Shown: positions 2,802 to 57,323 of the stretch, in pieces | Layout of the letters: each line of letters opens with the position of its first letter | How positions within the stretch are numbered: position 1 is the stretch's first letter | Notes under the pieces: model-generated | Databases searched by the model: none | Told to the model about the DNA's origin: nothing | What the model saw: only the letters and a program-made list of their open reading frames with translations | Source: a virus | DNA: 64,000 bases | Virus record (IMG/VR): IMGVR_UViG_3300025383_000010 | Strand: one strand, 5' to 3' | Made by a program: the position numbers and the translations under genes

Positions 2802-3211
2802 AATGGATATTGACCGCGCAACGCATATCGTCAACAAGATGGTCAAGGAACGCTATTCCACGGTTGACAAGGTTCTCGCAGAATTTCTCAAGTACAATAA
2901 GAATGGTGAATGCCAGCATTTCTGGCCTGATGAAAACACTGCTTGCAAGGTGCTGATTGCGCGCAGGGTATCAAAGTGATCATTAAAATCAAAGGTATTA
3001 CTAATCACGGTAAGAATCGCATTCGTGAACATGGCGAAGAGTGGCGCGTGATTGAACCTATGGTCACTCCTAAGCCTGCACAGCTTTTCATTGAAAGCGT
3101 TAAGACCGGGGATCGGCGGTGGCTAAATCACAACTTTGAGATTGTGCAATGATGCACTATACAATTCCCGGCGGGGCTACGCGAAACTATAGTAACACAA
3201 AGGAAAGTAAT

Positions 3212-3433
3212 ATGGAAACTATTGTTAAGATTGTCGGGGCTATTGTTCTCGGCGTAGTGGGTATCGTTACTGTCGGTCTCCTCATGAGTCTGCCGGTTAT
3301 GTGGCTTTGGAACGGTGCCCTCGTTCCTGCTGTGAGTGGATTGCATGAGATTGGTTGGCTCCAGGCTTGGGGAGTCATGATTCTGTGCGGTATGCTTTTT
3401 AAGGGCAACAGCACTAGCACTTCGTCTAACTAA
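3212..3433 (+). CDS. Small membrane protein
   Basis: Hydrophobic, PVMWLWN...IGWLQAWG; AAGGA RBS before METIV. Confidence 0.7.
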   Translation: METIVKIVGAIVLGVVGIVTVGLLMSLPVMWLWNGALVPAVSGLHEIGWLQAWGVMILCGMLFKGNSTSTSSN

Positions 3434-5039: not shown

Positions 5040-5600
5040 ATGTTTGCAGTAGTCTTGTGTCTCATCCCGTTTGCATTTCTCGGATATATGTGTTATCGTG
5101 CGTTTCATGTCAAGCGCAAGACTACTGTAACTCCGCAGCCGAAGCCAGTTGATAAGGTAATATTGCATGGACACAATCTTGCCAAGTGGAATTATCTTGG
5201 GCATACTCTTTGCAGATACGTTGATAAAGATGGTGAGATTACAGGTGAGCATCCTATATTCTTGTTCGTAGACAAGAACAATGAAAAGCGTAGGTCTTAC
5301 TTTGTTGTAAGTGAGTATGCTGACAAGAATCATCAATATATTCAGGTAACTGTAAAGCCTTGGGCAGCAGGTGAAGGTGAACTTTGGCATCTAATTTCTG
5401 GCACAGGCAACAAGCCATCTGACTATCTCAGAGAGTATATGCTTGAGAAGTTTAAATGCGAATGGGATACCGATACCAAATGGTGGGGTACCAGTGACAA
5501 GGCTAAGTACAACTCTGCAAACGAAAAGCAGAAGCGTGAACGCAAGCCTAAGGAAGTCAAGACTGAAAGCAATGTCGTTACCGTTGAGTTTGGAAAATAG
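5040..5600 (+). CDS. Membrane-anchored hypothetical protein
   Basis: N-terminal TM helix. Confidence 0.7.
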   Translation: MFAVVLCLIPFAFLGYMCYRAFHVKRKTTVTPQPKPVDKVILHGHNLAKWNYLGHTLCRYVDKDGEITGEHPIFLFVDKNNEKRRSYFVVSEYADKNHQYIQVTVKPWAAGEGELWHLISGTGNKPSDYLREYMLEKFKCEWDTDTKWWGTSDKAKYNSANEKQKRERKPKEVKTESNVVTVEFGK

Positions 5601-5640
5601 GGGTAACGATTAAATACTATTGTATCAAAGGAGAAAGACC

Positions 5641-5877
5641 ATGGATATGAATAGTATTTTAAGTCAGTTAAAGGGACTGATTGCAGAGGGTGATGGTAAA
5701 CTAAGCAACAAGCGTGTTATCACTATCCTTTGCACTCTCATGCTCATCACTGCATTTAGTGCCAATGTCTTTATGGCAAAGCACATTGATGACAACATCT
5801 TGAACAGCATCATGTTCATTATCATCGGTGGTATGGGCATCACTGGTATGGAAAAGTTTGCACCTAAGCAACAATAA
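5641..5877 (+). CDS. Two-TM small membrane protein (holin-like possible)
   Basis: Two hydrophobic helices; TAAATA late promoter near 5611; AGGAG RBS. Confidence 0.55.
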   Translation: MDMNSILSQLKGLIAEGDGKLSNKRVITILCTLMLITAFSANVFMAKHIDDNILNSIMFIIIGGMGITGMEKFAPKQQ

Positions 5878-5937: not shown

Positions 5938-6324
5938 ATGCTTAACATCGGTGACACTGTTACGATCAAAGTTCGCAACGTCATGTATGACGTTCGCCAT
6001 CGTTATCCCGCAGGTATGATTCCCGAGTTCAACGAATATACCGGTACCGTCATGCGCGAAAAGTTCTTTGCCGATGACGAGATTGGTATCACCAGCGACA
6101 CCTTTGGTATCAAGTTCCGTCGCATTCGTCTTGATCGCATCGTTGAAGTCAATGCTGCCAAGGTTGAGTTTACTCCTGTCAAACATGAGCGTGAAACTAA
6201 GGTAGTTCAGGGTAGTAAGGGTAACTCGTATATTGTCACTCGTGATGGTAGCAAGACCACTTGCACTTGCCCCGGTTATGGTTTCCGCAAGACTTGCAAG
6301 CATGTTCATGAGGCATTTGCGTGA
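5938..6324 (+). CDS. SWIM zinc-finger protein
   Basis: C-terminal CTCPGYGFRKTCKH. Confidence 0.75.
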   Translation: MLNIGDTVTIKVRNVMYDVRHRYPAGMIPEFNEYTGTVMREKFFADDEIGITSDTFGIKFRRIRLDRIVEVNAAKVEFTPVKHERETKVVQGSKGNSYIVTRDGSKTTCTCPGYGFRKTCKHVHEAFA

Positions 6325-6560
6325 AACTTGATGTTATAAACAATGCTCATCACCGAAATATGTATGTGTCCGCTAAAGCAGCATTTGTTAACGCGAGTCC
6401 TTCTAGTTTTGATAACGCTGAAAAGTTTTGGAAAGAATTGGGTGAAGCATACGATATGAGAATTATCAAACCTATATACAAGGGCAAGTTTCCGGTTGTT
6501 GAAGCACTAGAGTTTAACACCGAAGAAGCATATTCCTGGTTTCTGTTGAGGTTTTCATAA
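6321..6560 (+). CDS. LRWS-array protein 1
   Basis: Ends FNTEEAYSWFLLRFS. Confidence 0.8.
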   Translation: MKLDVINNAHHRNMYVSAKAAFVNASPSSFDNAEKFWKELGEAYDMRIIKPIYKGKFPVVEALEFNTEEAYSWFLLRFS

Positions 6561-6769
6561 TGCGTTGGGTTCGTGAACATAGCAAGCCTTATAGGCTGGA
6601 ACTGAAATATAATCTCGGTGAGGAACGTTGGTCAGAAGTTCAAGATACACTAAATGAAGCTAAGAAGTGGTGTAGACAGAACAATATGTTTATCTGGGAC
6701 GATGGGTTGTTCTACATTGGTTTCATTAACCATCGTGACATGGCTTGGTTCTTGTTGAGGTGGTCATGA
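6560..6769 (+). CDS. LRWS-array protein 2
   Basis: Ends FINHRDMAWFLLRWS. Confidence 0.8.
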   Translation: MRWVREHSKPYRLELKYNLGEERWSEVQDTLNEAKKWCRQNNMFIWDDGLFYIGFINHRDMAWFLLRWS

Positions 6770-6987
6770 AAACTGCATTCACATTTAAGAAATGGTATTG
6801 GGGACCATTGCATGATGATCAGCCGCCCCATTGGTGGACCAACTTCGCAGAGGGTAAATCTATCAGTGTCAGCAAGATAACTGAACTTAGCCGTGTTGCT
6901 AAAGTTAGACAAAAATCAAATGGTAGCCTTCGTGTAGTGTTCAAGTCTCCCGGTGATCTAACGTTTTTTATTTTGAGGTGGTCATGA
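6766..6987 (+). CDS. LRWS-array protein 3 (paralog of 7441-7665)
   Basis: ATG in ATGA overlap; ends FKSPGDLTFFILRWS. Confidence 0.8.
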   Translation: MKTAFTFKKWYWGPLHDDQPPHWWTNFAEGKSISVSKITELSRVAKVRQKSNGSLRVVFKSPGDLTFFILRWS

Positions 6988-7160
6988 CCGAAGTTGATAT
7001 TAGCTTTGTCGGAAATTGGTCTAACAGCAAGATTACCGAGTGTAACGAATGGTTGGACAAATATCCTCACTTCGGGGAGATTGATATTGACGGGGCATCA
7101 TGTATCATGTATTTTGAAGATGAAAGGGATGCTATGCTCTTTATGTTGAGGTGGTCATGA
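6984..7160 (+). CDS. LRWS-array protein 4
   Basis: Ends FEDERDAMLFMLRWS. Confidence 0.8.
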   Translation: MTEVDISFVGNWSNSKITECNEWLDKYPHFGEIDIDGASCIMYFEDERDAMLFMLRWS

Positions 7161-7444
7161 GTTACTATGAAGCAAAAGATAGAGAACTGTACTCTAAACT
7201 GATTCAGTTTTATCCTAGGGTAGAACCTGGTCATGCGTTTGTATCCAATCTCTTTAACGAGTTTGGAAAGCAAGATGCTATTCCCAATTATGAGGACCCT
7301 ATGTATTCATGGGCCAAACGTCTTGAACAGTGGCTGCCCGGTAAAGTCGGTTTGATTAGAAATCCAGATGATGCTGATAATTGGGACAAGTTTATCGTAG
7401 TTGATCAAGGGCTGTATGCTTTTGCATTGTTGAGGTATTCATGA
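7157..7444 (+). CDS. LRWS-array protein 5
   Basis: Ends YAFALLRYS. Confidence 0.8.
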   Translation: MSYYEAKDRELYSKLIQFYPRVEPGHAFVSNLFNEFGKQDAIPNYEDPMYSWAKRLEQWLPGKVGLIRNPDDADNWDKFIVVDQGLYAFALLRYS

Positions 7445-7665
7445 AAACTGCATTCACATTCAAGCGTCGGTGGTGGGGTATAGATCACGAAGATCAACCT
7501 CCCCAATGGTGGAAAAACTTCCTTGATGCATATAGCCCGTCGGGAGAAGCTGCATATAAAGAACTTAGTAAGATTGCTAAAGTTAGACACATGACCAACG
7601 GAAATATCCGTGTAGTGTTCAACAGTCCCGGCGATCTATCGTTCTTTATCTTGAGGTGGTCATGA
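7441..7665 (+). CDS. LRWS-array protein 6 (paralog of 6766-6987)
   Basis: MKTAFTFK...FNSPGDLSFFILRWS. Confidence 0.8.
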   Translation: MKTAFTFKRRWWGIDHEDQPPQWWKNFLDAYSPSGEAAYKELSKIAKVRHMTNGNIRVVFNSPGDLSFFILRWS

Positions 7666-7889
7666 TTACCTATATAGAAAGCACATATGAGTCCCGTGGA
7701 GCCAGTTTCACCTTAGCTACGCCGGTATTACACAAGGTTTGTTTTAATCATTATGATCGTTTGGAAGTAATGAACTGGTGTGAACAAAACTGTAAGGCTA
7801 AGTTCTATCCCGGGCCTTCTTGGGCAGGGCATTTTTTTGAGTTTGAAGACGATGAAGACGCTGTTTGGTTTGCGTTGAGGTGGTCATGA
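7662..7889 (+). CDS. LRWS-array protein 7
   Basis: Ends FEDDEDAVWFALRWS. Confidence 0.8.
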   Translation: MITYIESTYESRGASFTLATPVLHKVCFNHYDRLEVMNWCEQNCKAKFYPGPSWAGHFFEFEDDEDAVWFALRWS

Positions 7890-8122
7890 CACATACCATC
7901 AAGCTCGCTGCTGGATTTGATGATCGCCCGGAATGGTTCAAGGAGCGGTATAGTGCTGTCATGGCTGATGCGAGAACCAACGACAAGTGGTTGGTTCCTA
8001 AGCCATGGACTTGGTATTGGAATGACAAATATGAAGGCAAGATTCGCATACGTAATAGTAGCCTGTTTGTTGAATTTGACAGTGAGCAGGATTTTATGTG
8101 GTTCATTCTGAGGGAAGCATGA
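7886..8122 (+). CDS. LRWS-array protein 8
   Basis: Ends FDSEQDFMWFILREA. Confidence 0.8.
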   Translation: MTHTIKLAAGFDDRPEWFKERYSAVMADARTNDKWLVPKPWTWYWNDKYEGKIRIRNSSLFVEFDSEQDFMWFILREA

Positions 8123-8394
8123 TAAACAACTACGATGTTAACAGTCTGTATCCTTATTTGCCTCCGGTTGACTTCCTAGCTAGAGGCGGCATCAAACCTT
8201 ACATATATGTAGGAATGTGGACTCCTACAGAGTGGCGTGTCTATTCAGTAGTAACCGAGATTGCTGATTGGATCAAGCAACAGCCTGAGGATATGTGGGT
8301 AGGAGCAGAAAACACCAAGCACCTAGTTCCATATGCTCATCCATACGCAGTCAGCCCAGAGTTAGAAGCCTGGATTAAGTTGAAGTGGGGATGA
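8119..8394 (+). CDS. LRWS-array protein 9
   Basis: Ends EAWIKLKWG. Confidence 0.75.
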   Translation: MINNYDVNSLYPYLPPVDFLARGGIKPYIYVGMWTPTEWRVYSVVTEIADWIKQQPEDMWVGAENTKHLVPYAHPYAVSPELEAWIKLKWG

Positions 8395-8708
8395 CTAAAA
8401 CTATTAGCGGAATTGAAATGAGGGATCGTCTCTTGAAACATATTAATGACCCAAGAGTGCGGGAACTAGAGAACAAATATTTTATTCTCTATCGCAAGAG
8501 GGTGCAACGCAAGACCGGTGGGTGTAAGAACAAGTGGATTGTTCAGATCAAGATGCGCCCTGACTTTAATTATATGCAGGATCGGCCAGAAGCACTAGCA
8601 ATCATGGAATCGTTCGGTGGTGAAGACTTTGGTCCTCGCTCTAGGGTATTCAGAAGGTATAGTGATGCTGAAAAGGCTTGGGTCTATTTAACGTTGAGGT
8701 GGTCATGA
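8391..8708 (+). CDS. LRWS-array protein 10
   Basis: Ends FRRYSDAEKAWVYLTLRWS. Confidence 0.8.
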   Translation: MTKTISGIEMRDRLLKHINDPRVRELENKYFILYRKRVQRKTGGCKNKWIVQIKMRPDFNYMQDRPEALAIMESFGGEDFGPRSRVFRRYSDAEKAWVYLTLRWS

Positions 8709-8959
8709 AAGATTATACTTTTTATAGAATGACTGTTATAATGGATAAATGGACTCGTATTCCTGTGCGTGACAAATGGTGCCATCCTAACCATGTGTTT
8801 GGATTAAGGAATCCATTAAGCCAAGAAATGAAAGAATGGCTTGACAAAAATGTTAAAGCACATTATGCTATTCTTGAGGATGAAGATAATTTCGTGAACC
8901 ATGACATAGCTTTTTCTAGTGAATATGATGCAGCTTTTTTTCTATTGAGGTGGTCTTGA
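8705..8959 (+). CDS. LRWS-array protein 11
   Basis: Ends FSSEYDAAFFLLRWS. Confidence 0.8.
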   Translation: MKDYTFYRMTVIMDKWTRIPVRDKWCHPNHVFGLRNPLSQEMKEWLDKNVKAHYAILEDEDNFVNHDIAFSSEYDAAFFLLRWS

Positions 8960-9168
8960 CCTACCAAGTAACTTTCCGTGAAGGTGAAGAACCTGAATGG
9001 TATGTGAAAGCATATGACAACGCTTGGGATAATAGATCAGGGTTCACTACATGGGCAAGTGTTTGGAATGAATATTATCCTGATACTAACTTGACTCATT
9101 CTGTTAGAGACATAACTGTTACCTTTAAATCCGAAGAAGATTTCACTGTATTTTTATTGAGGTTATAA
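8956..9168 (+). CDS. LRWS-array protein 12 (TTG start)
   Basis: Ends FKSEEDFTVFLLRL. Confidence 0.75.
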   Translation: MTYQVTFREGEEPEWYVKAYDNAWDNRSGFTTWASVWNEYYPDTNLTHSVRDITVTFKSEEDFTVFLLRL

Positions 9169-9434
9169 TGAGTAAGAAAACTGTTTTGAGAGAGATTACA
9201 CACTTCAAGTTCATCCAGACTAAACACGCTCCGCCGGGCGATCAATGGGCTAAGCCACTCTACATCATTGACGCTTGTAAGGGCTGGACTGCTGCAAGTA
9301 TTGATATGGAAGAGGTCAGAAACATTGTTGACCCTAATCGCAATATCAGTGGTAAGAATGGTACTCGTTGGAAGTTCCGCAAGTTTGAAGATGCTGACAA
9401 ACTATGGATGTATCTTGTTTTGAGGTATTCGTAA
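9168..9434 (+). CDS. LRWS-array protein 13
   Basis: Ends FRKFEDADKLWMYLVLRYS. Confidence 0.8.
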   Translation: MSKKTVLREITHFKFIQTKHAPPGDQWAKPLYIIDACKGWTAASIDMEEVRNIVDPNRNISGKNGTRWKFRKFEDADKLWMYLVLRYS

Positions 9435-9640
9435 TGGCACCGTTGCTTGATGATGGTCCAATCTGGTATTTTGAAGAAAAGAAACTAATATGGTCATTCT
9501 TGCCTAGAAAGTGCAAGGTCTCCGGTGAAACATTGTGGTTCAAGAAGGCTTGGAGAATTAGATTTCATGACTGGGGCGGGCACGAAGATCGCTGGTATTG
9601 TCAGCGAGAATATCTTTGGAAACTACTAAAAGAGGATTGA
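9434..9640 (+). CDS. Hypothetical protein closing the array
   Basis: TAATG overlap; lacks the C-terminal motif. Confidence 0.7.
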   Translation: MAPLLDDGPIWYFEEKKLIWSFLPRKCKVSGETLWFKKAWRIRFHDWGGHEDRWYCQREYLWKLLKED

Positions 9641-9686
9641 CATCACCTTCATAACCTGCTATAAGAGTAATTGTAAGGAGACATAT

Positions 9687-10100
9687 ATGACTATGCATTT
9701 GCTCGGACCTGCATTCTCTACGCTCAACACTAACAAGCGTAAGAAGAAGATTTCCGACAGTCAGTATCATAAGTTTGCTATGGAGCTTAACAGTTACAAT
9801 AAGCAGATGAAGAAGTATGGTCTCAAGCCCAAGACGCTAGACGAATACATTGCTTATCGTCAGGGTAAGTACAAGCCCACTCTTAAGGGTGCTCCTAAGG
9901 ATCCTATGAAGGCTACTACCCTTCGCCGCGAGACTCCGGTAGTTCCGTCTGGTGATGGCATCGGTACTACTTACGCTCGTAAGGAAAAGGTTTACACTGG
10001 TACGTTGATTAAGGGCATTGCAACTATGCACAAGAGCAATGCTGTTCCTATCATTAACGAAGAACAGATGCACGAAGTTGCCCGTATGAGGAGGGGGTAA
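9687..10100 (+). CDS. Conserved-type phage hypothetical protein
   Basis: YTGT..KGIATMHKSNAVP motif; TTGACA-17-TATAAG at 9637-9665. Confidence 0.75.
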   Translation: MTMHLLGPAFSTLNTNKRKKKISDSQYHKFAMELNSYNKQMKKYGLKPKTLDEYIAYRQGKYKPTLKGAPKDPMKATTLRRETPVVPSGDGIGTTYARKEKVYTGTLIKGIATMHKSNAVPIINEEQMHEVARMRRG

Positions 10101-10267: not shown

Positions 10268-10663
10268 ATGACTGATATTTCTACTGAACACATGGATGCT
10301 GTCATCAGTGACGGTATTGCGTTTCTTCGCTCTATCACGACCGCATACGGTTCTGATGAGGGCATGAAATTGTGGGATACTATTGCTAGTACTCTTGACC
10401 CTAATATCAAGGGCAAGATTTTCTTTTCCATGCTTACTAATACGCATGAGGATCGTGTTACCTTGTCTGGTGCGGTTGCTGGTACTAACAAGATCAATTG
10501 CATCAAGATCATTCGTCAGTATACTGGTTTGGGGCTGGCCGAAGCCAAGAATGCGTATGAAAACGCTGGTGATTATGGTAGCAAGGTCGTTCTTAAGGTT
10601 TACCCCAAGAATCGCCGTGAATTCATTGACGAACTTCGTCAGAATGGGATGATCGTGTCGTGA
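10268..10663 (+). CDS. Protein with ribosomal L7/L12 C-terminal-like domain
   Basis: NKINCIKIIRQYTGLGLAEAKNAYE resembles L12 KI.VIK.VR..TGLGLKEAK. Confidence 0.7.
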   Translation: MTDISTEHMDAVISDGIAFLRSITTAYGSDEGMKLWDTIASTLDPNIKGKIFFSMLTNTHEDRVTLSGAVAGTNKINCIKIIRQYTGLGLAEAKNAYENAGDYGSKVVLKVYPKNRREFIDELRQNGMIVS

Positions 10664-12231: not shown

Positions 12232-13071
12232 ATGAAAATAGCACTAGCCTCGGATCTCCATTTGGAGTTTGAAACAATTACCCTTCCCAACACTGAAGGT
12301 GCGAAGGTACTGATCCTAAGTGGTGATATCTGCGTAGCTCATAGTCTCCATGACCATCCTATTGATAAGCCTGTTCCTGCTGATGCTATGAAGCCGGGAC
12401 GTAATCAGGGTGCTGCTGTTAAGTTCCGTGAGTTCTTTAACCACGTGAACAGTGAGTACGATCATGTGGTGTACATCGCAGGTAACCATGAGTTCTATCA
12501 TGGTCGCTATCCTGACACTATTCAGTGGCTGCGTGACGAGATTGCAAACTATAGTAACATTCACTTCCTTGATCAAGATCATATTGAGATTGATGGCGTA
12601 ACTTTTGTGGGCGGTACCCTTTGGACAAACATGAACAAGGGCGACCCCACTACTATGCACTTGATTGAGAATATGATGAATGACTTTAGAATCATTCGTA
12701 ACAGTCAGCGTAGTTATGCTAGATTCAGCCCATTGGACTCTGTAGTCCATCACAGAGCAACGCTGGAGTACATTAAGAAGACTGTTGACAGTGATCCTAA
12801 TAAGAAGTATGTTGTAGTTGGTCATCATGCTCCTACTCCATTGAGCATTCACGATAAGTACAAAAACGAGTACTACATGAATGGTGGCTATCACAGTGAC
12901 TTGTCAGAGTTCATTCTAGATCGCCCTCAGATCGTCCTCTGGACTCATGGGCATATGCATGATCCATTTGACTATATGATGGGAGAGACACGCATTGTGT
13001 GCAATCCTAGGGGCTATAAGGGACATGACCCTCGGGCTAATGTGTTTCAATTAAAGTTTATTGACATCTAA
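12232..13071 (+). CDS. Calcineurin-like metallophosphoesterase
   Basis: SDLH, GD, GNHE, HHAP, HGHMH motifs. Confidence 0.9.
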   Translation: MKIALASDLHLEFETITLPNTEGAKVLILSGDICVAHSLHDHPIDKPVPADAMKPGRNQGAAVKFREFFNHVNSEYDHVVYIAGNHEFYHGRYPDTIQWLRDEIANYSNIHFLDQDHIEIDGVTFVGGTLWTNMNKGDPTTMHLIENMMNDFRIIRNSQRSYARFSPLDSVVHHRATLEYIKKTVDSDPNKKYVVVGHHAPTPLSIHDKYKNEYYMNGGYHSDLSEFILDRPQIVLWTHGHMHDPFDYMMGETRIVCNPRGYKGHDPRANVFQLKFIDI

Positions 13072-13291
13072 GGAGATTATAATGTTCAAATGGATAGAGA
13101 AGTTAGCCGACGATCATCCGCGACGGTATCCGCTAGGTCCTGGAGAAATGCCGATACGAGATGAGCATTATGACTCTATGATCTTTGGTAGGGGTTACTG
13201 CGACATGAACGGTAAGATGCATCCGTTCAAGGTTACGCTTCCGGGCGTAATTAAAGGCATCATTACATTAAAGTTTATTGACATCTAAGGA
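13050..13291 (+). repeat. 25-bp direct repeat ATTAAAGTTTATTGACATCTAAGGA flanking a small gene
   Basis: Copies at 13050-13074 and 13267-13291. Confidence 0.9.
13082..13288 (+). CDS. Hypothetical protein between direct repeats
   Basis: Ends LKFIDI* like the upstream gene. Confidence 0.7.
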   Translation: MFKWIEKLADDHPRRYPLGPGEMPIRDEHYDSMIFGRGYCDMNGKMHPFKVTLPGVIKGIITLKFIDI

Positions 13292-13638: not shown

Positions 13639-14171
13639 TGAAGGTTAAACTCGGGAAACACCCTAGTGGTAATGCAAAAAGAAGGGTGAGTATTGAAGTT
13701 GATAGCTTTGATACTTGGTCCCTTGACCACACCCTTGCTCTTATCATTCTTCCTGCACTGATCCAACTTAAAAACACTAAGCACGGTGTTCCTAGCAATT
13801 TCGTTGAAGACATTGCCGATGATTGGCATAGTCAAGATTGCTTTGACTTCATCAAAGAAGACAAGGATGCTGTGTTTGAGGCTGGTTGTCAAAAGTGGGA
13901 AGATGTTCTTGACAAGATAATCTGGAGTTTTCAACAAATTGCAATTGATGATGAATATGATAGTCAGTATCATCATGGTGAAATGAAGATTGGTTGGAAG
14001 CCGATCACGGTTCCGCATCCTATTACCGGTATAGTAGAAGAAATGCACGAAATGGTTGACGAGAATCCAAACGAACATTGGTATGACCACGTAGGACACA
14101 CACTGCATAATGAGCGCATCCAAGAAGGGCTTGACCTGTTCGGCAAGCACCTGCGTGACCTCTGGGATTGA
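13638..14171 (+). CDS. Hypothetical phage protein
   Basis: DTWSLDHTLA..ILPAL...HGVP; GLDLFGK..LWD. Confidence 0.75.
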   Translation: MKVKLGKHPSGNAKRRVSIEVDSFDTWSLDHTLALIILPALIQLKNTKHGVPSNFVEDIADDWHSQDCFDFIKEDKDAVFEAGCQKWEDVLDKIIWSFQQIAIDDEYDSQYHHGEMKIGWKPITVPHPITGIVEEMHEMVDENPNEHWYDHVGHTLHNERIQEGLDLFGKHLRDLWD

Positions 14172-14172
14172 T

Positions 14173-14655
14173 ATGAAACCTAAATACATAACGTTGTACA
14201 TGGATTTAGCAGACCGCATAAGCCAAATGTCTTATGCAAAACGATTGCAGGTTGGAAGTGTCATCGTAAAAGAAAACACCATTATCTCATATGGTTGGAA
14301 TGGAATGCCCTCCGGTTGGGAGAATGACTGCGAAACCCGTACTCACTATACTGACGGTGGTCCGGAAGGTCCTGTTTGGTATGATGAAAATGGCAGTATG
14401 TATGGGCTAAAGACTAAGCCCGAAGTGCTGCACTCCGAAATGAACTCCTTAATGAAGGTCGCACAATCTACCGAGTCTTCGGCGGCCGCTACTATGTTTT
14501 GTACTCACGCACCGTGCATGGACTGTGCCAAGGCTATTTACCAAGCAGGGATTTCTACTCTATATTACCGAGAAGAATACCGCTCACTAAAAGGAGTAGA
14601 GTTTCTAAAGAAATCAGGAGTAAATGTTCTCAAATATGAAGATAGGGATAAATAA
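14173..14655 (+). CDS. dCMP deaminase
   Basis: GWNG.P.G, HSEMN and PCMDC zinc motifs. Confidence 0.9.
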   Translation: MKPKYITLYMDLADRISQMSYAKRLQVGSVIVKENTIISYGWNGMPSGWENDCETRTHYTDGGPEGPVWYDENGSMYGLKTKPEVLHSEMNSLMKVAQSTESSAAATMFCTHAPCMDCAKAIYQAGISTLYYREEYRSLKGVEFLKKSGVNVLKYEDRDK

Positions 14656-14681
14656 AAGTGCTACACGCAGAGGCATCTTTT

Positions 14682-15248
14682 ATGAAAAAACTAACGCACA
14701 TACATCACATTATACCTCGTCATATGGGAGGGACTGACGATCCTTCTAATCTCATTGAATTATCACTTGCTGAACACGCCGAGGCCCATTTAAAACTTTA
14801 TGAGGACCACGGTAAAAAACAGGACCTTTGGGCTTACTATCTATTGTCAGGACAGACAGAGGAAGCCTTTTTACTCAACTGTTCTGCGGGAGGGAAGATT
14901 CAAGGGAAGGTAAATGCAGAAAACGGCCATATGCAAAAGATACAGAAAATGGCTAACTGTAGTGAAGCCGGTAAAAAGGGCGGCGCCGCAACTATGGCAG
15001 CCGGGAAAGGTGCATTTGGTGATCCGGCCGAGAGACTTAAATCGTGCATAAAGGGAGGCAAGGCTCAAGGAAAACGCAATGCCGAATCTGGGCATTTAGC
15101 AAGAATAGCCCAGATGCCCATAGAACTTAACAAGCGCACTCTTGGACAGATTTGGGTTACAGACGGTACAAATAACAAGATGCTTAAATCCGGTGAGGCC
15201 ATTCCTGAAGGATTTAGTCGTGGAAAAACTCAAAAGAAAAGTCAATGA
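14682..15248 (+). CDS. HNH homing endonuclease
   Basis: HHIIPRHMGGTDDPSNL..L...EHAEAH; GATAAATA late promoter at 14647. Confidence 0.85.
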   Translation: MKKLTHIHHIIPRHMGGTDDPSNLIELSLAEHAEAHLKLYEDHGKKQDLWAYYLLSGQTEEAFLLNCSAGGKIQGKVNAENGHMQKIQKMANCSEAGKKGGAATMAAGKGAFGDPAERLKSCIKGGKAQGKRNAESGHLARIAQMPIELNKRTLGQIWVTDGTNNKMLKSGEAIPEGFSRGKTQKKSQ

Positions 15249-15451
15249 TCAATATACCGACCGCACATAAAGCTAACATTGATATTCCATATGGGCATTT
15301 GCAGCCTGTTCTTGATTGGTGTGAGAGAAACTGTGAAGGTGATTACCGTTTTGTTGATCTTGTCGGTGATCAAGACAGTGACACAGGACGGTGGGAGTTC
15401 GTTTTTGAATCCGACCGAGACTATGTAGCATTTCTTATGTGGCAGAAGTAA
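15245..15451 (+). CDS. Hypothetical protein, LRWS-family-like outlier
   Basis: DWCERNC...FESDRDYVAFLMW. Confidence 0.7.
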   Translation: MINIPTAHKANIDIPYGHLQPVLDWCERNCEGDYRFVDLVGDQDSDTGRWEFVFESDRDYVAFLMWQK

Positions 15452-28100: not shown

Positions 28101-28655
28101 ACATTGCCGGCGCAGGGTATAGGTCCTTCTAACGAGGGTGCTGAAATTGATTTCACTAAAGCTCCTAATAGTTCACTGAGTGGTAATGCTGTTATCGTTG
28201 ATCAGTACATTGATAGAATCAGATTCTTTGAAGGCGGCGGTTCTGCTCGCGGTGCTTATATTGATTTGAGTCAAGCAGCGGCAGGTGTAAACACATTACT
28301 AAACAATCGTGTAAGCGGACTAGTGAATGCTGGTACATTTGTAACAATGGACAACCTCAAAGCAACAGTTACAACAAGTGGTCAGCGTGGATTAAGTTTG
28401 GCTGCCGTATCAGGATCGTTTAATATATTGATAGGCAGCAGTTATTCATTGACTGCTAGCACTGGCGGAAATTCAGGAGGCGGTACAGTCAACACCACTC
28501 CAAGTACTTCTCAATTTGGCTATAACTTTACTGGTGCAGGTGACACATCAACATACATTATTACTGACACTACTAACAACAGAGCCTATCGTATCACACT
28601 ACAGATTGGTGCCAGCTACAATAACAACTTGATTACTATTGAGCGATTAGTATGA
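25104..28655 (+). CDS. Long tail fibre-like protein
   Basis: GNV/ANV repeats, repeated W.FD..GNLT.P, QVQFND.G. Confidence 0.75.
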   Translation: MIESVKITSLNNIGSNLSYSSIFPVVDVSGTPITDKANLQIIGNYILSQAGGANMVQAAQATLAQAVVNSAQPNITSVGTLSINTLHISGGTNGQYLQTDGTGNLNWVSGGGSGNGTVGGATGQIQFNNAGHFGGSTNLTWDQANALLGATNFVASHATIYGNVDSVNLNASGNVRTGAIYTDHYYYANGYVFGGGGGGTPGGVSTQVQFNDAGAFAGNTGFTFNKTTGVLNVTHLSGEGGNLSNIQGSNVSGTVAYAAVANSVAGANVSGQVSHAAAANSVAVANVVGLGNIATVALDGSSSHVLYGNGQWAAASSANVGNFAFDSTDVDGTTYDEIVLTGTNSGNILVNADNLVMISGSYESDGLIAGGGNVYLFNGDPTYANGIPQPGVGHIWQFDDTGNTTLPTGAAIANISGFGPGLSTFFGDANGATFGTGPGNDITFTPADGAAIYSNGFMWTFSTDGNLTTPGNITGANVIEANTFLGTGNLKLQPDPNNNGAYLDVYLTSGPDVHIAGNGETVIVGSDAGANVSVQASGNVAIQANAVFGGTPRTWMFDYNGNLTLPQLTTINDVSGTGTTLTVGVPPTVIVISGADFVAVNTTYTRDFGQATPTWYPAGYTPGVNPYIMFTGGQYGIYNPGFVPPLYINTGTLNIPLIQWNLNPPLGSIAPTAVYTYGSTGPAWKFDPTGNLKLPGVLVAQASDNGSIIFSNNGTDTNGSFKVDGGLNMTISANSNFYVKRAGSDRLAITDTDTTLMAGANLVLKSNKNATEKVWTFDTTGNLTAPGNITSGNLLTRTLYTGGATTVPSGVTMDGGVVVNGNIATVLTASYQGNGFFAINANTSVAGAGDLFDRSINGGWSRNLTLANGNVQIANYIVFNDGSYQNTAPIIYNNSNVATFLASFGSNTITTTGNIKAGNANVTGNLVLASTTNIVSVSGSNGNITLDPDGTGVVNVIGNVVANNFSGNISITGNVQGTSPNVTLVAGSYSATFDNTGVLTLPAQGIGPSNEGAEIDFTKAPNSSLSGNAVIVDQYIDRIRFFEGGGSARGAYIDLSQAAAGVNTLLNNRVSGLVNAGTFVTMDNLKATVTTSGQRGLSLAAVSGSFNILIGSSYSLTASTGGNSGGGTVNTTPSTSQFGYNFTGAGDTSTYIITDTTNNRAYRITLQIGASYNNNLITIERLV

Positions 28656-29353
28656 TAATTCAAGGTGTCGCACTTAAAGGTACAAGAGTTGTTGATGCTA
28701 GTATCATCAGGCAAAACCTTGCCATATGGATAGATGCTAACAACTCATCTAGTTATCCCGGTACTGGTACTACGATCACTGACTTGAGCGGTAACGGTAG
28801 AACACAGAATATCATAAACGCTAGTCAATATACTGTATTAAGTGGGGTTAAATGTTTTGACTGTAGTGGTCCTAGTGTGAACAATGCTATATCAGCCGCT
28901 AGTGCAGGGCCAGTGTTACCTACATCAGGCTTTACGTATATTTCATGGGCTAGGATGATTGCTAGTACAGCAAACTATCGTACACTTTTTAGAACCTATC
29001 CCGATGATCATCCATTGTTAATTGGTATAGGCACTAATCAATTAGGAACTTGGGACAACAACGGTACTAACTTTCATTCAGCCGGATATGATGTATCCAG
29101 TCTTGCTAATGTATGGACACAATGGGCAGTGACTGGTGATAGTAGTGGACAAACATTTTATATAAACGGAAAACAAGTAGGTACTACTACAGCGTCATCC
29201 GCAGGTAATAATCACAACATTACAGGCAATGCAAGTGCTCCTGGCGGACAACCATTTGGGTATATTGCTAATATGTTTTTATATACTGCTAAGTTGACAC
29301 AAGAGCAGATACAACAGAACTACTATGGACTGAAAAGCGTGTTTGGTTTGTAA
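28652..29353 (+). CDS. LamG/concanavalin-A-like virion protein
   Basis: WIDA....SYPGTG, FYING, I.QNY. Confidence 0.75.
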   Translation: MIIQGVALKGTRVVDASIIRQNLAIWIDANNSSSYPGTGTTITDLSGNGRTQNIINASQYTVLSGVKCFDCSGPSVNNAISAASAGPVLPTSGFTYISWARMIASTANYRTLFRTYPDDHPLLIGIGTNQLGTWDNNGTNFHSAGYDVSSLANVWTQWAVTGDSSGQTFYINGKQVGTTTASSAGNNHNITGNASAPGGQPFGYIANMFLYTAKLTQEQIQQNYYGLKSVFGL

Positions 29354-32596: not shown

Positions 32597-32767
32597 ATGA
32601 CATTTCATCTTAACACCCCTGAGGCACAAGCTGCTAGAGAACAGTTCAAGCAAAACGCTGCTGCTAAACAAGAAGCAATCAAGAGTGCCCCTAGATTGTC
32701 AGCACCAACTAAGCCTGAAGAGCCAGCAAGACCAGAACGAGTTCCTTTTAAAGGAGCAGGTAAATGA
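32597..32767 (+). CDS. Small hypothetical protein (56 aa)
   Basis: Hand-read MTFHLNTPEA...FKGAGK*, AAGGA RBS. Confidence 0.6.
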   Translation: MTFHLNTPEAQAAREQFKQNAAAKQEAIKSAPRLSAPTKPEEPARPERVPFKGAGK

Positions 32768-33705
32768 GCGGATTAACAATCACAGGCACTGGCATAACAC
32801 TTGGATCAGGTATTAGTATACATATGCCTCCTGTATTAATGTTGAATCTTGACGCTGCAACTTACAGTGTTGTTACTACTTCAGCCTCACAGAATATTAA
32901 CGGTTCTAATAGTGATACCGGTAATTTCTTTAGACCTAATGATTCAAGATATGCAGATATTACCATAGGATGGACTGTAGTTGGAAATCCTACATGGGTA
33001 GTAACCGCGGTTTCGTGCAATCCAAGTGATCAATATAGTACTATAGTAACTATTAGCAATGGTGTATTCCTTTCAGGTCAGTCTTACGCATTCACTAGCG
33101 AAGTGTCTTGGATTGACTCTATCTCTGATCGTGCGTTCATATTACAAAACGGTGTTACATATGACAACATTGACGGTGGTAGTTTAGTCTTTGATGCAGC
33201 TTCAAGTCAATCTGCAATTTGTACTTCTAGCCTACCTAATCTAAGTACATGGGCAGTTGAAGTTTGGCACTATTACACGGGTAACAATACACCAGGATCA
33301 CCTGAAATCGTAACAGAGACCTATACAGGGGATAGCGGAATCAACTATACCTTAGGTTCTATCTCTAATACTACAACCGGATTATCAACCGGGTGGTGGA
33401 ATGGAGGTCAATGGATTTATACTAACCCTGATTATAGTCTAACACCTGATAACTGGTATCAAATTGTAGGTACATATGATGGTTACAATGTTAATTTGTA
33501 TGTCAATAATACATTAGTAGAATCATCATCTATCGCTGCGGGTAATGCATATGGCAGTGGACAAGGCATTAGATTGATGGAAAGATGGGACAATGCCGAG
33601 TACTGGGACGGTAAATTAGGTATTGTCAATATCTATGATGGATATATGAATGCAGACGATGTAACTGCTAGCTGGAATGCTAATAGAACAAGATTCGGGC
33701 TTTAA
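32764..33705 (+). CDS. LamG-domain virion protein
   Basis: LNLDA, WYQIVGTYDG..LYVN, C-terminal RFGL. Confidence 0.75.
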   Translation: MSGLTITGTGITLGSGISIHMPPVLMLNLDAATYSVVTTSASQNINGSNSDTGNFFRPNDSRYADITIGWTVVGNPTWVVTAVSCNPSDQYSTIVTISNGVFLSGQSYAFTSEVSWIDSISDRAFILQNGVTYDNIDGGSLVFDAASSQSAICTSSLPNLSTWAVEVWHYYTGNNTPGSPEIVTETYTGDSGINYTLGSISNTTTGLSTGWWNGGQWIYTNPDYSLTPDNWYQIVGTYDGYNVNLYVNNTLVESSSIAAGNAYGSGQGIRLMERWDNAEYWDGKLGIVNIYDGYMNADDVTASWNANRTRFGL

Positions 33706-34231: not shown

Positions 34232-34903
34232 ATGATCGTACATCGTCCCGCTAATAGTAGGGGCCATATTACTGCGCCCTTCATGGATACAAGAAGAACT
34301 TTCAGTTTCCCTAGTTACTATGATAGTCGTTATATGAACTTTAGCGACTTACAAACTATCAATGATGATCGGGTTCAGTATGCATGGCAAGTTCCCTGGC
34401 ACGAACACAAGAACATGGAAATTTTCGGCTATGTAGTTGAGGGTTCAAGTCATCATGTAGACAGCTTGGGTAATGATATAGAAGTTCCAGCTGGTGCTGT
34501 CCAACGCATGAGTGCAGGTAGTGGTATACATCACACTGAAGGTAATACCAGTGACACCCCAAATCGTTATCTGCAAATATGGATCAGACCAAATGTATTT
34601 GATACTCAACCAACACATGAATGGTGCATGTTTTCTAGGCGAGATAAGCTAAATAAGTTCTGTAATATAACAGAAAGATTACCAGTTAAGCAAGATGCAA
34701 GATTACTAGCTGGAATATTCACACAAGACTTTAGCTTTGACTTAGACAGTAATAGAAAATACTACTTGTATGTAGTGACTGGTACTATAACTGTTAACGG
34801 TTTAGAGTTAGTTGAGGGCGATGGACTAAGTTTTATTGAAGAATCTAATATCAACATAACTAATCCAGAAGAATCGGAAATTATTCTTTTTGATCTACGA
34901 TAA
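34232..34903 (+). CDS. Pirin family protein (YhhW-like)
   Basis: RTFSF..YYD, INDD, H.H.NMEI, H.DSLGN, QRMSAGSGIHH.E.N, LQIW. Confidence 0.9.
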   Translation: MIVHRPANSRGHITAPFMDTRRTFSFPSYYDSRYMNFSDLQTINDDRVQYAWQVPWHEHKNMEIFGYVVEGSSHHVDSLGNDIEVPAGAVQRMSAGSGIHHTEGNTSDTPNRYLQIWIRPNVFDTQPTHEWCMFSRRDKLNKFCNITERLPVKQDARLLAGIFTQDFSFDLDSNRKYYLYVVTGTITVNGLELVEGDGLSFIEESNINITNPEESEIILFDLR

Positions 34904-45817: not shown

Positions 45818-45892
45818 TGGAGCGGGTGAGCGGATTCGAACCGCCGACAGCTTCGTTGGCAACGAAGGGCTCTACCACTGAGCTACACCCGC
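45818..45892 (-). tRNA. tRNA-Gly(GCC)
   Basis: Cloverleaf, CCA end. Confidence 0.9.
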
Positions 45893-46050
45893 AAGAGTGT
45901 ATTAACTTTTAGAAACACTAGTCCTGCAATAGCCTGGGTCGGGCATTTATCGTCTTTGACAGCAGTTCGTAGTGTATGACTTGCATAGCGCCCATATTCG
46001 TTAGCCTATTTGTTCGCTTGATTTCTCAAGTATGCAAGTTATCTAAACTT

Positions 46051-46124
46051 TGGAGCGGTATGCGGGAATCGAACCCGCGTACTCAGCTTGGAAGGCTGCT
46101 GCACTACCATTGTGCTAATACCGC
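46051..46124 (-). tRNA. tRNA-Gly(UCC)
   Basis: Cloverleaf, CCA end. Confidence 0.9.
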
Positions 46125-46125
46125 T

Positions 46126-46204
46126 TGGTTGCGGGGGTCGGATTTGAACCGACGATTTCCGGCTTATGAGACCAGCGAGGACGACCAGACTCCTCTACCC
46201 CACG
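46126..46204 (-). tRNA. tRNA-Met(CAU), initiator-like
   Basis: C1.A72 mismatch, CAT anticodon. Confidence 0.85.
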
Positions 46205-46211
46205 ACACTAA

Positions 46212-46270
46212 ACTATTTTGAAGAACACACAAACAATTTTGGGAGGTGCATATGTGTTCATCAAAATAGT
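46212..46270 (-). ncRNA. Closing-stem RNA A
   Basis: ACUAUUUUGA-U-GAACACA / UGUGUUC-U-UCAAAAUAGU. Confidence 0.55.
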
Positions 46271-46279
46271 CTAATATTA

Positions 46280-47125
46280 TTTATCTTTTGTACAGCCTGA
46301 GATTACAGCTTTAGACGAGTGACTTTGGTCATTACCGAATCCCTTGCGAGGACCGTTCTACCGTTATCCACTAGAGCTTGTTACAGTCATCTAGTATCAC
46401 TCAATGCTGCCTTTTTGAGAGTCTGGCGTTTGACTCGTCGCACTATGCTATTCGACCATCTATCTTTCGTTAGCCTTGCGGGCTATTCACAGTCGCTAAA
46501 CCGTTACGCTTTCTTTCCGATCAATCAGTTCGGCCTTGCGGGCTTCCCTGAACCTCATTCCCTTGCGAGTGAGGTATTAAGCACCTTTCACATAGTACCG
46601 GAGCAGTCTTTCGCTTTTGTTTATCAAATTAGGATTTGAACCTAAGCCGATCCATTAGAAGTGGATTACTCTACCGCTGAGTTATTTGCGAACCTACCAA
46701 GATGTGCTGCTCCAGTTGCTCCATACCTTGTTAGATACAGAATACAACACACCTCATGTCTTTTGCCTTGCGGGCTACTCAACCATACTTCACGGATCCG
46801 GAGCAAGTGTCCTCCTTCTTCGTTTGTATTGCTATCTTGCCTTTCCTTGCGAGGTCAGACTCAATAACTACCTGTTAACCTTCGATATTCGTCAGTTTGG
46901 CTGTACATCGTGAGAGCGCCAACCCTCTTATCTACTCACCGATTTGGCTCTGTAGACTATCCCCTTCGGGACGCTATACCTGACTTACTACCTACCGCCT
47001 TTCTACGGACGGGCCTTTCGGCTAGTTCAGGCTTGCATAGATGGACTCTTACGAGCGCAAGTTTATAGGAAACCTTGCTTTAGGCACATTACTGTGCTTA
47101 CCCTAATGAGGCTATGCCCCCAATT
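46280..47125 (-). ncRNA. Large structured RNA, GOLLD-like candidate
   Basis: ~850 nt with no credible ORF; about 9 GNRA-capped hairpins on the minus strand; dedicated promoter; adjacent to tRNAs. Confidence 0.6.
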
Positions 47126-47136
47126 CTTATATTCAA

Positions 47137-47205
47137 TTTTCAAAGAGCTAAGACAATCTCTTGTCTTGATAAACTCATTATATCAAAGTTCGTAACCGTT
47201 GTCAA
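47137..47205 (-). promoter_or_regulatory. Consensus promoter with boxB-like hairpin and boxA
   Basis: TTGACA-17-TATAAT; AAGACAA-GAGA-TTGTCTT; GCTCTTTGAAAA. Confidence 0.75.
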
Positions 47206-47491
47206 GAACTTTTTTGCCTATTTACGAAAAAAGTTTGGAAGAGAAAGAGTAAGTGATAGACAAAGCAATATGCAGCGACCAACCCAAAGGGTAAAATCTA
47301 TACACACTGAACACTAAACAAACTGCAAAATAGCGTATGTCCAAGCAAGCAATTCACAAAGTTGAATAAAGCCTGGTTCATGCTATTATAAGCGTTTCGA
47401 GCGCCGTGCTGTAAAGTATCATCCGATACCAGGGTGTCTACTCTAATCTCTCTTTCTCTCCCCGGTAACATCCGAAGATGCTACCAAACTG

Positions 47492-48052
47492 TTAGAGGAT
47501 ATCCTCGTTAGTCAGTGTTGCAACTGTCTCGTCGGACAGTTCAATGGTCGTGCGAACATTAAGTTCAAGCAACTCATCCTGCAACTTCTGCTTTTCCTTC
47601 TTTGCCTTGACAGCAAGACGATTAAGGGTCTTGATGTCATTCTGGGTAAAGATAGAAGTTTCTACTTCTGCCTTAGCATAGTAGCTATCTTCCGTGCGGT
47701 TGGCAATCTTCACGAGCTTGCCACGAATGACTTCACCGTCCAAACGTTCCTTAGCCTTGCTATAAGCAGTGAAGAAAGTTACTTCCTTCTCTAGAAAAGC
47801 AAGATCAGCGAGACGACCATCAATGTCGTTAGTTGCGTTAGCAGATGCAGTTGCTTTGCGGATCTCATAGAGACTACGGAGCAGTGCATTACGACGGTTG
47901 ATGTTATCAAAGAAGGTCGTTGACGCAGCAGCGATCACTTCTTCTGGCTTCTGGAATTCATTGATGCTGACATCAGCCTTGAATTCAAGGCCCTTAAGAG
48001 CTTCGTTGATTGCGATCTGGATTGCATTTGCCTTACGTAGTGAAACTTGCAT
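47492..48052 (-). CDS. Hypothetical coiled-coil protein
   Basis: ORF track. Confidence 0.75.
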   Translation of the reverse strand: MQVSLRKANAIQIAINEALKGLEFKADVSINEFQKPEEVIAAASTTFFDNINRRNALLRSLYEIRKATASANATNDIDGRLADLAFLEKEVTFFTAYSKAKERLDGEVIRGKLVKIANRTEDSYYAKAEVETSIFTQNDIKTLNRLAVKAKKEKQKLQDELLELNVRTTIELSDETVATLTNEDIL

Positions 48053-48122
48053 TCTTCTTCCCTTTGTGTTTCATTGCTTATACTATAAACCAATATGATA
48101 ATCAATCATTTTGGGTAAACTT

Positions 48123-48199
48123 TGGTAGCAGTAGCAGGATCCGAACCTGCGACCTTCCGGATATGAGCCGGACGCTCTGACCAACTGAGCTATACTGCC
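48123..48199 (-). tRNA. tRNA-Met(CAU), elongator-like
   Basis: Cloverleaf. Confidence 0.85.
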
Positions 48200-48202
48200 A
48201 TA

Positions 48203-48580
48203 TTATGTAAAAGTCTTCAACGCTTTCAAATCGTCACCGATGTTGTCTTCACTGATAGGACCAAGACCAAGACAAGTCGTAGTTGGTTCATTGAACACAG
48301 TGAATCCAGCGTCAGTTACAAGACTCGTACCGCAGACATCCTTATACTTTTCCTGGAGAGCCTTAAGCTCATCAACAGTATCTACGATAAGAGTAATCTT
48401 GTAAGCACGGTCGCTATTCATGTATGCTCGTACTTGATCAATAAAGCACTTCTCAGGATTCAAAGAATCCCAATAAGCATGTAGATAAGCATGGCCTGCT
48501 TGAGTACACATCTTACCTCGAATACCTTTCATCTTTGCAACGCTCTCTTTGGCAAAGATAGCGTACATTTTGTATTTCAT
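48203..48580 (-). CDS. Peptidyl-tRNA hydrolase Pth2 family
   Basis: GK.CTQAGHA, KITL.V, V.DAG.T......T.LGLGP. Confidence 0.85.
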   Translation of the reverse strand: MKYKMYAIFAKESVAKMKGIRGKMCTQAGHAYLHAYWDSLNPEKCFIDQVRAYMNSDRAYKITLIVDTVDELKALQEKYKDVCGTSLVTDAGFTVFNEPTTTCLGLGPISEDNIGDDLKALKTFT

Positions 48581-48729
48581 AACATTCTCCACTATCAATA
48601 ATTTGCCATAAAATCACTGGGTAAACCTGAGGACTCTTGCCCCACCTTTTTATTATCATACACGCCGGCAACCCTGCAGCGTCAGGTGTACTCTCTCGCT
48701 ATAGCATATGCATCTGTTATAGCATGAAT

Positions 48730-48815
48730 TGGAGGACGTAGTGAGGCTCGAACTCACAAGGCATTTCTGCGGCAGATTAAGAGTCTGCTGGACCAACCAA
48801 TTGTCCAATACGTCC
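48730..48815 (-). tRNA. tRNA-Lys(CUU) with long variable arm
   Basis: GCAGA-CT-CTT-AA-TCTGC; 86 nt. Confidence 0.8.
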
Positions 48816-49500: not shown

Positions 49501-49522
49501 TGCCTTCTCCTTTCTGTGTATT

Positions 49523-57322: not shown

Positions 57323-57323
57323 A

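Follow-up and report, generated by a model that had tools for sequence, protein, structure and literature searches.

A variable array of small genes from one phage protein family, joined by a short coding junction

The 64,000-nucleotide stretch of viral DNA analyzed here (IMG/VR virus record IMGVR_UViG_3300025383_000010; hereafter "the window," with positions counted from its first letter) comes from an uncultured large phage that is rich in tRNA genes and carries both rIIA and rIIB. On its plus strand, at positions 6321 to 9434, lie 13 tandem small genes whose products of 58 to 105 aa end in F-x-L-R-W-S-like tails, as is evident from the list of open reading frames (ORFs) and from the sequence itself. 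These genes, called cassettes c1 to c13 below, belong to a single protein family, abut through a short stretch of coding DNA, and vary greatly in number and order among related phages. The reading that we favor, to which we assign a probability of roughly 0.6, is that of a translationally coupled, hyperplastic accessory array built from one family and shuffled by homologous recombination at a coding linker.

A first-pass annotation made from the sequence alone had reported 13 consecutive small genes with LRWS-like tails, joined by a junction in six exact and seven variant copies that combines a stop/start overlap with a Shine-Dalgarno sequence, and this description stands. The junction 15-mer, TTGAGGTGGTCATGA, is exact at the ends of c2, c3, c4, c6, c7, and c10; 11 of the 13 cassette ends match it with no more than three mismatches, the ends of c8 and c13 being more diverged. 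At the same threshold the whole window holds 14 matches against 2.0 ± 1.4 in shuffled sequence, and none of 100 shuffles reaches 14. A GAGGT lies 4 to 5 nucleotides (nt) upstream of the start codon at 11 of the 13 cassette ends. All 14 boundaries across 6321 to 9434 show a stop/start overlap (ATGA, GTGA, TTGA, or TAATG), successive cassettes overlap by 1 to 4 nt, and the array contains no intergenic DNA at all. The coupled chain as a whole comprises 15 genes, from 5938 to 9640, and extends beyond the 13 cassettes at each end. The extent first given for the array, 6321 to 9640, was right in that coupling continues to 9640; the chain begins earlier, at 5938, and its last ORF (c14, 9434 to 9640) is not a detectable member of the family. 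The idea that c14 might be a degenerate member was rejected, since hhalign gives it a probability of 2% against the family.

The junction is under a real constraint at the nucleotide level, as had been proposed. The motif Leu is TTG in 12 of the 13 array genes (c8 uses CTG), and each of the 12 genes with a motif Arg encodes it as AGG, c9 having Lys (AAG) in its place; the codon usage first noted, TTG in 12 of 13 and AGG throughout, is thus confirmed. AGG accounts for only 15% of the Arg codons in the bodies of the array genes and 4% in six large ORFs of the window, so that 12 of 12 AGG codons at the motif has a probability of ~1e-10. Family-wide codon counts, in which one exact junction copy per locus was removed to correct for the finding of loci by motif, give the same picture: AGG at 233 of 313 motif Arg positions against 8% in gene bodies, TTG at 68% of motif Leu positions against 22% in bodies, and TGA as 76% of stop codons. 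Before TGA, the last codon is in most cases NNA, and the residue at the very end differs between members (Ser, Ala, Leu, Thr, Gln, or Glu), as expected if only NNA-TGA matters. In 277 of 370 family members the end of the gene overlaps the next start; AGG is used by 80% of the members that do so and by ~60% of those whose next start is more than 15 nt away, and in the latter the last codon moves from TCA to TCG, TCT, or GCT. The bias extends to homologs found independently of the DNA motif: in nine nonredundant loci reached through protein matches only, AGG occurs at 24 of 31 positions, the ATGA overlap at 26 of 38 gene ends, and the exact 15-mer at 7 of 38. Counted in these two ways, AGG makes up 74 to 77% of the motif Arg codons of the family. 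A solitary family member elsewhere in the window, which has no downstream gene to serve, ends in FLMWQK rather than LRWS. Uncoupled family members nevertheless retain the basic residue and the Trp, and the tail is therefore constrained by the protein as well.

Based on these features, we posit that the junction couples the translation of each cassette to that of the next. A Leu codon of the form NNG, Arg AGG, Trp TGG, and then NNA before TGA would together spell GAGGTGG, a Shine-Dalgarno site ~5 nt upstream of the next ATG, and GAGGTGGTC could pair with the 3' end of 16S rRNA over nine positions with one G-U pair (with the well-known anti-Shine-Dalgarno sequence taken for that of the host). 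In this model, a ribosome ending one cassette could start the next, and the entire chain, from the SWIM-like gene at its head to 9640, would be expressible from one mRNA without intergenic signals. No RNA element at the junction was matched in Rfam. Promoter-like sites number 21 against 14.1 ± 4.2 in shuffled sequence, with none positioned at junctions, and terminator-like sites likewise do not fall at the array junctions. In translationally coupled operons generally, the stop codon of one gene overlaps the start of the next as ATGA, and the Shine-Dalgarno sequence lies inside the upstream gene. The array resembles such operons in its 4-nt overlap and in having a GAGG ~5 nt ahead of the start, within the 3' end of the gene before. 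It differs from them in that a single, identical junction recurs at as many as 17 boundaries in a row within a locus and over thousands of gene clusters, and in that this junction fixes the last residues of an entire protein family.

The N-terminal parts of the cassettes had at first been taken to be largely unrelated. They are not: the 13 cassettes are diverged paralogs of one ~55-aa domain found only in phages, rather than unrelated bodies that share a tail, and a Trp-bearing helix, two strands, and a terminal helix align across the family. A family hidden Markov model (HMM), seeded with the 13 window proteins and iterated, matches all 13 cassettes. The C-terminal signature of the family, F-x-F-x2-(E/D)-x-D-x3-F-x-L-(R/K)-W, sits at the extreme end of the protein and is accompanied by a conserved Trp in the preceding helix. 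Alignments A2 and A7 both run from a first strand through a helix with an invariant Trp (often within W-C-x-x-N-x-G) and two further strands to a last helix ending in F-x-L-R-W, and their invariant positions are one Trp and two Phe. AlphaFold2 predicts a beta-alpha-beta-beta-alpha topology for both c7 (predicted local distance difference test, pLDDT, 70) and c4 (pLDDT 79); in the c4 model the fold spans residues 2 to 57, i.e., the whole of the 58-aa protein. An HMM and predicted structures had been suggested beforehand as a check for a shared fold, and together they are consistent with one family of this predicted topology. The ratio of nonsynonymous to synonymous substitution rates (dN/dS) in ortholog pairs is 0.07 to 0.24, comparable to that of flanking genes; the cassettes are therefore real coding genes, held under purifying selection.

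This family is large and has no name. A scan of IMG/VR for the exact 15-mer returned at least 120 loci, and 29 of the 120 listed hold two to eight exact copies on the same strand; by HMM, 103 of the 120 hold ~630 members between them, with up to 17 in one locus. A profile search of 1.84 billion representatives found at least 4,779 clusters at 50% identity (E ≤ 0.001), with a match that reaches the C terminus, and a second database gave 280 matches, of which the 120 listed are all hypothetical proteins, none with a Pfam domain. Members occur mostly in comparable arrays of uncultured phages, including genomes above 200 kb. Searches of curated collections were negative: 54 family members had no Pfam match at E ≤ 0.01, the window cassettes had no PHROGs match below E 0.003, and, among GenBank phages, neither megablast with the array nor tblastn with three members at E values up to 0.1 returned a match. 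The two-junction pattern had 0 matches in 185,579 prokaryote genomes. Comparison of the structural models was equally unrevealing, in that Foldseek against the PDB gave best E values of 0.39 and 0.28 and no convincing solved structure; the best VIA-align score (Z 5.7, to KH-like, ACT, RRM, and secretin N-domains, which are common alpha+beta sandwiches) lies below the level that the tool treats as meaningful; matches in BFVD were limited to uncharacterized proteins of uncultured phages; and a feature search of the ESM Atlas returned hypothetical viral clusters only.

Two variations on the family theme deserve mention. Proteins P0173, P0189, P0230, and P0231 (139 to 144 aa) each consist of two tandem family domains and are probably fused neighboring cassettes. 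In the cultured jumbo phage Atu_ph07 of Agrobacterium (MF403008), six small ORFs match the family profile with E values of 6e-6 to 3e-4. They share F-x-(D/E)-x-D-A-x-x-F-x-L-R-(Y/F)-like ends with the cassettes, but they are scattered rather than gathered into LRWS-ATGA arrays, and extra residues or other stop contexts come after the tail.

A comparison of related phages had been proposed in advance as a test of cassette turnover, and it shows that content varies greatly between shared flanks. The gene downstream of the chain (the downstream anchor, 9687 to 10100) has 18 relatives at 53 to 87% identity, and orthologs of the SWIM-like gene upstream of c1, 53 to 67% identical, flank the variable region in loci L125 to L129 and L134 to L137. 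Relatives with the same flanking genes hold from 0 to 13 cassettes, in differing order. The window has 13 cassettes plus c14 between the anchors; L129 and L038 have 5 to 6 cassettes, the content being c2, c3, c5, one other cassette, c13, and c14; L127 has c2 followed by c1 and, later, c10; L128 has a c12-like and a c3-like cassette and then c14; and L125 and L126 have none, the anchors being separated by a gap of ~230 nt. In L129 and L038, c4 is missing between the orthologs of c3 and c5, and the c13 ortholog is 82% identical; the c10 ortholog of L127 shows 73% protein identity. Farther afield, L064 carries the order c8, c11, c1, c7, and in L033 c2 stands beside c7. Cassettes have thus been gained, lost, replaced, and permuted, with similarity ending at the junction, and that part of the original proposal holds. 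Neither a fixed order and content, nor breakpoints unrelated to the junction, nor a free synonymous choice at Leu and Arg in homologs located inside arrays was seen.

Single cassettes that are 91 to 97% identical across phages stand among unrelated neighbors. The nucleotide identity between c7 and a cassette of L064 is 97% across the gene (synonymous divergence, dS, 0.05) and at each of the two junctions falls away within a few bases; c2 and a cassette of L033 are 91 to 93% identical (dS 0.25), again with identity lost at both junctions. On the L033 contig, the anchor gene, ~17 kb from the c2-like cassette, has only 60% protein identity to that of the window, and the low dS of c2 beside so diverged an anchor argues for lateral transfer of the single cassette. 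Taken together, these comparisons point to lateral movement of single cassettes between diverged phages and between different arrays.

Whole-cassette insertions and deletions (indels) are also found between near-identical contigs. L069 and L074 are 98 to 100% identical, and L074 is without exactly two cassettes, or 478 nt; copies of the junction, 24 nt long and identical, stand as direct repeats on either side of this indel, and the cassette that follows is replaced directly past its junction. L148 and L149, 99.9% identical, are likewise separated by a two-cassette indel. Among cassette pairs of 81 to 98% identity in differing contexts, most ends of similarity fall within ~24 nt of the start or stop codon.

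Mosaicism is visible at other places too. In a comparison of L038 with L129 (locus coordinates 1787 to 2197 and 5299 to 5712), the two contigs are 97 to 100% identical through the array up to c14, and their anchor genes are 87% and 69 to 70% identical to the anchor of the window; since the anchors diverge despite near-identical arrays, a mosaic boundary lies between c14 and the anchor gene. Between L058 and L069, a patch of ~130 nt (reverse strand, ~4040 to 4200 of L058) is only ~60% identical inside an otherwise 100% identical cassette, which suggests a partial replacement within a cassette.

Does junction homology cause this turnover, or does selection for intact genes place the breakpoints where we see them? 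The second answer is the main rival to our reading, and we consider it rather unlikely: the cassettes would be ordinary tandem paralogs, their tail and junction kept for the fold and for the ribosome-binding site of the next gene, and illegitimate recombination could strike anywhere, only in-register products surviving, so that the junction would be no special substrate. An unbiased count of alignment ends inside arrays places 31 of 86 (36%) within 5 nt of a family stop codon against ~3.5 (4%) expected. Several observations weigh against the junction as cause, however. Outside arrays, 16% of 284 alignment ends fall within 5 nt of the stop codon of a long ORF against 2.2% expected, and with this ~7-fold enrichment the junction is not clearly more recombinogenic than other gene ends. 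About 40% of the in-array breakpoints lie more than 30 nt from a junction, and the break of the L148/L149 indel falls just past a start codon, outside the tail. Because the repeat stands at every boundary, any in-register cassette indel will look repeat bounded whatever its origin. The fact that seemingly uncoupled members still use AGG in ~60% of cases means that part of the codon bias may have been inherited and not reflect a present role in ribosome binding, and the predicted fold gives no clue to function. The enrichment at gene ends outside arrays, the breakpoints away from junctions, the L148/L149 break, and the protein-level constraint on the basic residue and Trp of the tail are all what ordinary paralogs would lead one to expect. 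Such paralogs account less well for the exactness of the L069/L074 indel, bounded by 24 identical bases; for the movement of single cassettes, with junctions at both their ends, among diverged phages and from one array to another; for a breakpoint density of 2.4 per kb within arrays and 0.95 per kb outside them; and for the rarity of scars and fused genes compared with clean events. In total, breakpoints at gene ends are a general trait of these phages, and the junction is somewhat, not dramatically, more affected.

Two further explanations take up ideas raised with the first-pass annotation. One holds that the tail is a docking peptide that recruits many unrelated effector bodies to one partner, nucleotide conservation being secondary. 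The Arg/Lys-Trp pair is indeed nearly invariant, even in proteins with no downstream gene in need of a ribosome-binding site, as a docking role would suggest. The fit is otherwise poor: in the structural models the tail provides the terminal helix of a compact domain, and this domain forms nearly the whole of the shortest members and, in c4, the whole protein; the upstream Trp and Phe positions align family-wide, so the bodies are homologous; and the last residue is dictated by the NNA-TGA overlap, whichever of the six residues named above it is. We hold a docking tail to be improbable. The other explanation invokes an integron-like system, in which a site-specific recombinase encoded elsewhere in the genome would capture and excise cassettes at the junction; its probability is, in our judgment, very small indeed. 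All that speaks for it is appearance, in that integrons too are one-directional arrays of small, promoterless, exchangeable accessory genes. However, there is no sign of an IntI integrase or of attI, attC, or hairpin recombination sites. There are no inverted repeats of 12 nt or longer within 120 nt of each other anywhere in 6200 to 9700, hence no attC-like hairpin; there is no Rfam match; and the ~30 window ORFs scanned contain no integrase or recombinase domain (Pfam or PHROGs), in line with the early remark that the window shows no integrase. The cassettes overlap by a few nucleotides instead of being separated by attC, which leaves no room for such a site, and the array is housed in a lytic-type phage genome. 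Arrays sit, moreover, in many phage backbones, with no common neighboring recombinase in the gene lists of the loci examined. On this evidence from the window the integron reading is rejected, and the likeness first drawn fails on defining features.

In the reading that we favor, recombination at the coding linker would proceed without any such enzyme. The same 15 to 24 nt recur at each boundary, not only inside one array but also from array to array and from phage to phage, and could for that reason serve as a portable homology patch. General homologous recombination, probably phage encoded, between copies of the junction would then delete, duplicate, insert, or swap cassettes in register, and every product of recombination at junctions would remain translatable. 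As for the proteins themselves, it seems likely that they have dispensable host-interaction or counter-defence functions: dispensable because relatives have no cassettes at this locus, and concerned with the host or its defences because this would fit both the diversity of the proteins and their position in an early-type gene block. A bolder version, possible but held only tentatively, would be an integrase-free cassette system that operates at the level of translation. Genes ending in LRW-Ser-ATGA would be excised as small circles or exchanged during co-infection, would enter any array with the same linker, and would be expressed at once without a promoter or ribosome-binding site of their own; their thousands of types might then make up a common stock of host-takeover or counter-defence proteins on which a whole clade of uncultured large phages could draw.

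Literature searches yielded no described equivalent of the LRWS-junction array, only the concepts of the promoter-early stem-loop (PeSL) and of boundary sequences. Modular shuffling mediated by PeSLs is the closest described system. PeSLs, known from the hyperplastic regions of T4-type phages, are mobile regulatory cassettes (Arbiol et al. 2010, PMC2839356; Comeau et al. 2014, PMC4122927); they are intergenic, ~100 bp long, and transcriptional in action (a sigma-70 promoter plus a terminator), their cargo is unrelated, and PeSL mini-circles have been demonstrated by PCR (PMC2839356, PMC4122927). In both systems a short conserved expression signal is repeated between the small genes of a hyperplastic region (ORFans in the case of PeSLs), and close relatives are set apart by whole genes that have been inserted, deleted, or replaced, with the repeat at the limits of the change, as is seen here for L069 and L074, for the window and L064, and for the window and L033. 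In both, the repeat would secure expression of a moved gene at its new site, and a site-specific recombinase is unnecessary. The array differs in that its repeat consists of 15 to 24 nt of coding sequence plus stop and start codons, would act on translation, and leaves no intergenic DNA; in that a single protein family supplies all the shuffled genes, and not unrelated ones; and in that its junctions have no intergenic sigma-70-like promoter and stem-loop terminator. The older idea of boundary sequences provides a second parallel. For lambdoid phages and mycobacteriophages, it has been suggested that short conserved sequences of this kind give rise to mosaicism through homologous recombination, although they are absent from most mosaic boundaries there (PMC3029335). 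The shared principle is that recombination at short sequences common to module boundaries yields viable mosaics; the difference is that here almost all boundaries of the array carry the sequence, and that a protein motif and the ribosome-binding site are linked to it.

The interest of the array is several-fold. It exposes a very large protein family for which neither Pfam nor PHROGs has a model, borne in long arrays by many uncultured phages, and it offers a concrete example of a gene pool with fast turnover that phages can nevertheless keep ready for expression. The linker would be the end of a protein, a ribosome-binding site, a stop/start overlap, and a homology patch at once, and the array presents a case in which the requirements of the following gene dictate, in part, a conserved protein C terminus. 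If the linker truly drives exchange, modular shuffling of the PeSL type would be extended from transcription signals to coding and translation signals, and the linker would provide a simple sequence handle for accessory, and possibly counter-defence, genes in metagenomic phages.

The individual genes of the chain, all on the plus strand, are as follows. The upstream anchor gene (5938 to 6324) encodes 128 aa with a borderline SWIM zinc finger (PF04434, scored at 19.8 bits where the cutoff is 19.6). The TGA that ends this gene shares bases with the GTG that starts c1, and 7 nt ahead of the GTG there is a GAGG. This GTG at 6321, in a GTGA overlap with the SWIM-like gene, is the most likely start of c1 (6321 to 6560, 79 aa), which matches the family HMM, ends in LLRFS, and passes to c2 through junction TTGAGGTTTTCATAA with a TAATG overlap. 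The cassettes with exact junctions are c2 (6560 to 6769, 69 aa, tail LLRWS), c3 (6766 to 6987, 73 aa), c4 (6984 to 7160, 58 aa, the minimal domain), c6 (7441 to 7665, 74 aa), c7 (7662 to 7889, 75 aa), and c10 (8391 to 8708, 105 aa); c3 and c6 are paralogs of each other (repeat families D3/D4, 77 to 78% at the nucleotide level). Between them stand c5 (7157 to 7444, 95 aa, tail LLRYS, junction TTGAGGTATTCATGA) and two cassettes with variant tails, c8 (7886 to 8122, 78 aa, ILREA, junction CTGAGGGAAGCATGA) and c9 (8119 to 8394, 91 aa, KLKWG, junction TTGAAGTGGGGATGA). The 84-aa c11 (8705 to 8959) ends in LLRWS, and because its junction is TTGAGGTGGTCTTGA, the next start is a TTG in a TTGA overlap; the TCTTGA variant of the junction is also present in L148 and L149. 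Most likely, then, c12 starts at the TTG at 8956 and runs to 9168 (~70 aa), with a truncated tail, FLLRL, and junction TTGAGGTTATAATG. The last cassette, c13 (9168 to 9434, 88 aa), ends in VLRYS with a TAATG overlap, and c14 (9434 to 9640), the last coupled ORF, encodes 68 aa without an LRWS tail, is joined by TAATG, and is conserved beside the downstream anchor. That anchor (9687 to 10100, 137 aa, phrog_27048) has its own AAGGAG ribosome-binding site. The solitary family member (15245 to 15451, 68 aa) matches the HMM and has no coupled gene behind it, the next gene lying on the opposite strand; its start is overlapped by the stop codon of an HNH or homing endonuclease gene (14658 to 15248, plus strand), which itself follows a dCMP/cytidine deaminase-family gene (14110 to 14655, plus strand).

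The remainder of the window is that of a phage far from cultured ones. Its content includes 43 tRNA genes, rIIA, rIIB, an endolysin gene, tail-fibre genes, a primase fragment, and an HNH endonuclease gene; the rIIA product is ~30% identical to those of jumbo phages such as XacN1, and a neighboring protein of 1183 aa has no match in GenBank phages. The 43 tRNA genes lie within ~17 kb on the minus strand (45818 to 62503), with small ORFs interspersed, and cover nearly all amino acids. Two genes downstream of the array, at 10268 to 10663 on the plus strand, is encoded a 131-aa protein with the C-terminal domain of ribosomal protein L7/L12 (PF00542, E 3e-8). Two proteins have Laminin_G_3 (concanavalin-like) domains (28652 to 29353 and 32764 to 33705), and a pirin/quercetinase-like cupin protein (34232 to 34903, plus strand) adjoins the tail-fibre block. 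Outside the window, L143 encodes at 2861 to 3226, in a long coupled array of small genes, a 121-aa product with a precomputed assignment to PF07068 (Gp23), which is odd for a protein of that size; the Atlas lists PF07068 on 13% of a nearby cluster. Finally, a perfect 25-nt direct repeat in the window (13051 to 13075 and 13267 to 13291) consists of the end of a metallophosphoesterase gene, its stop codon, and TAAGGA. The small ORF that the two copies bracket therefore also ends in LKFIDI, and it looks like a small gene inserted at a junction of gene end and ribosome-binding site, the same type of event as in the array.

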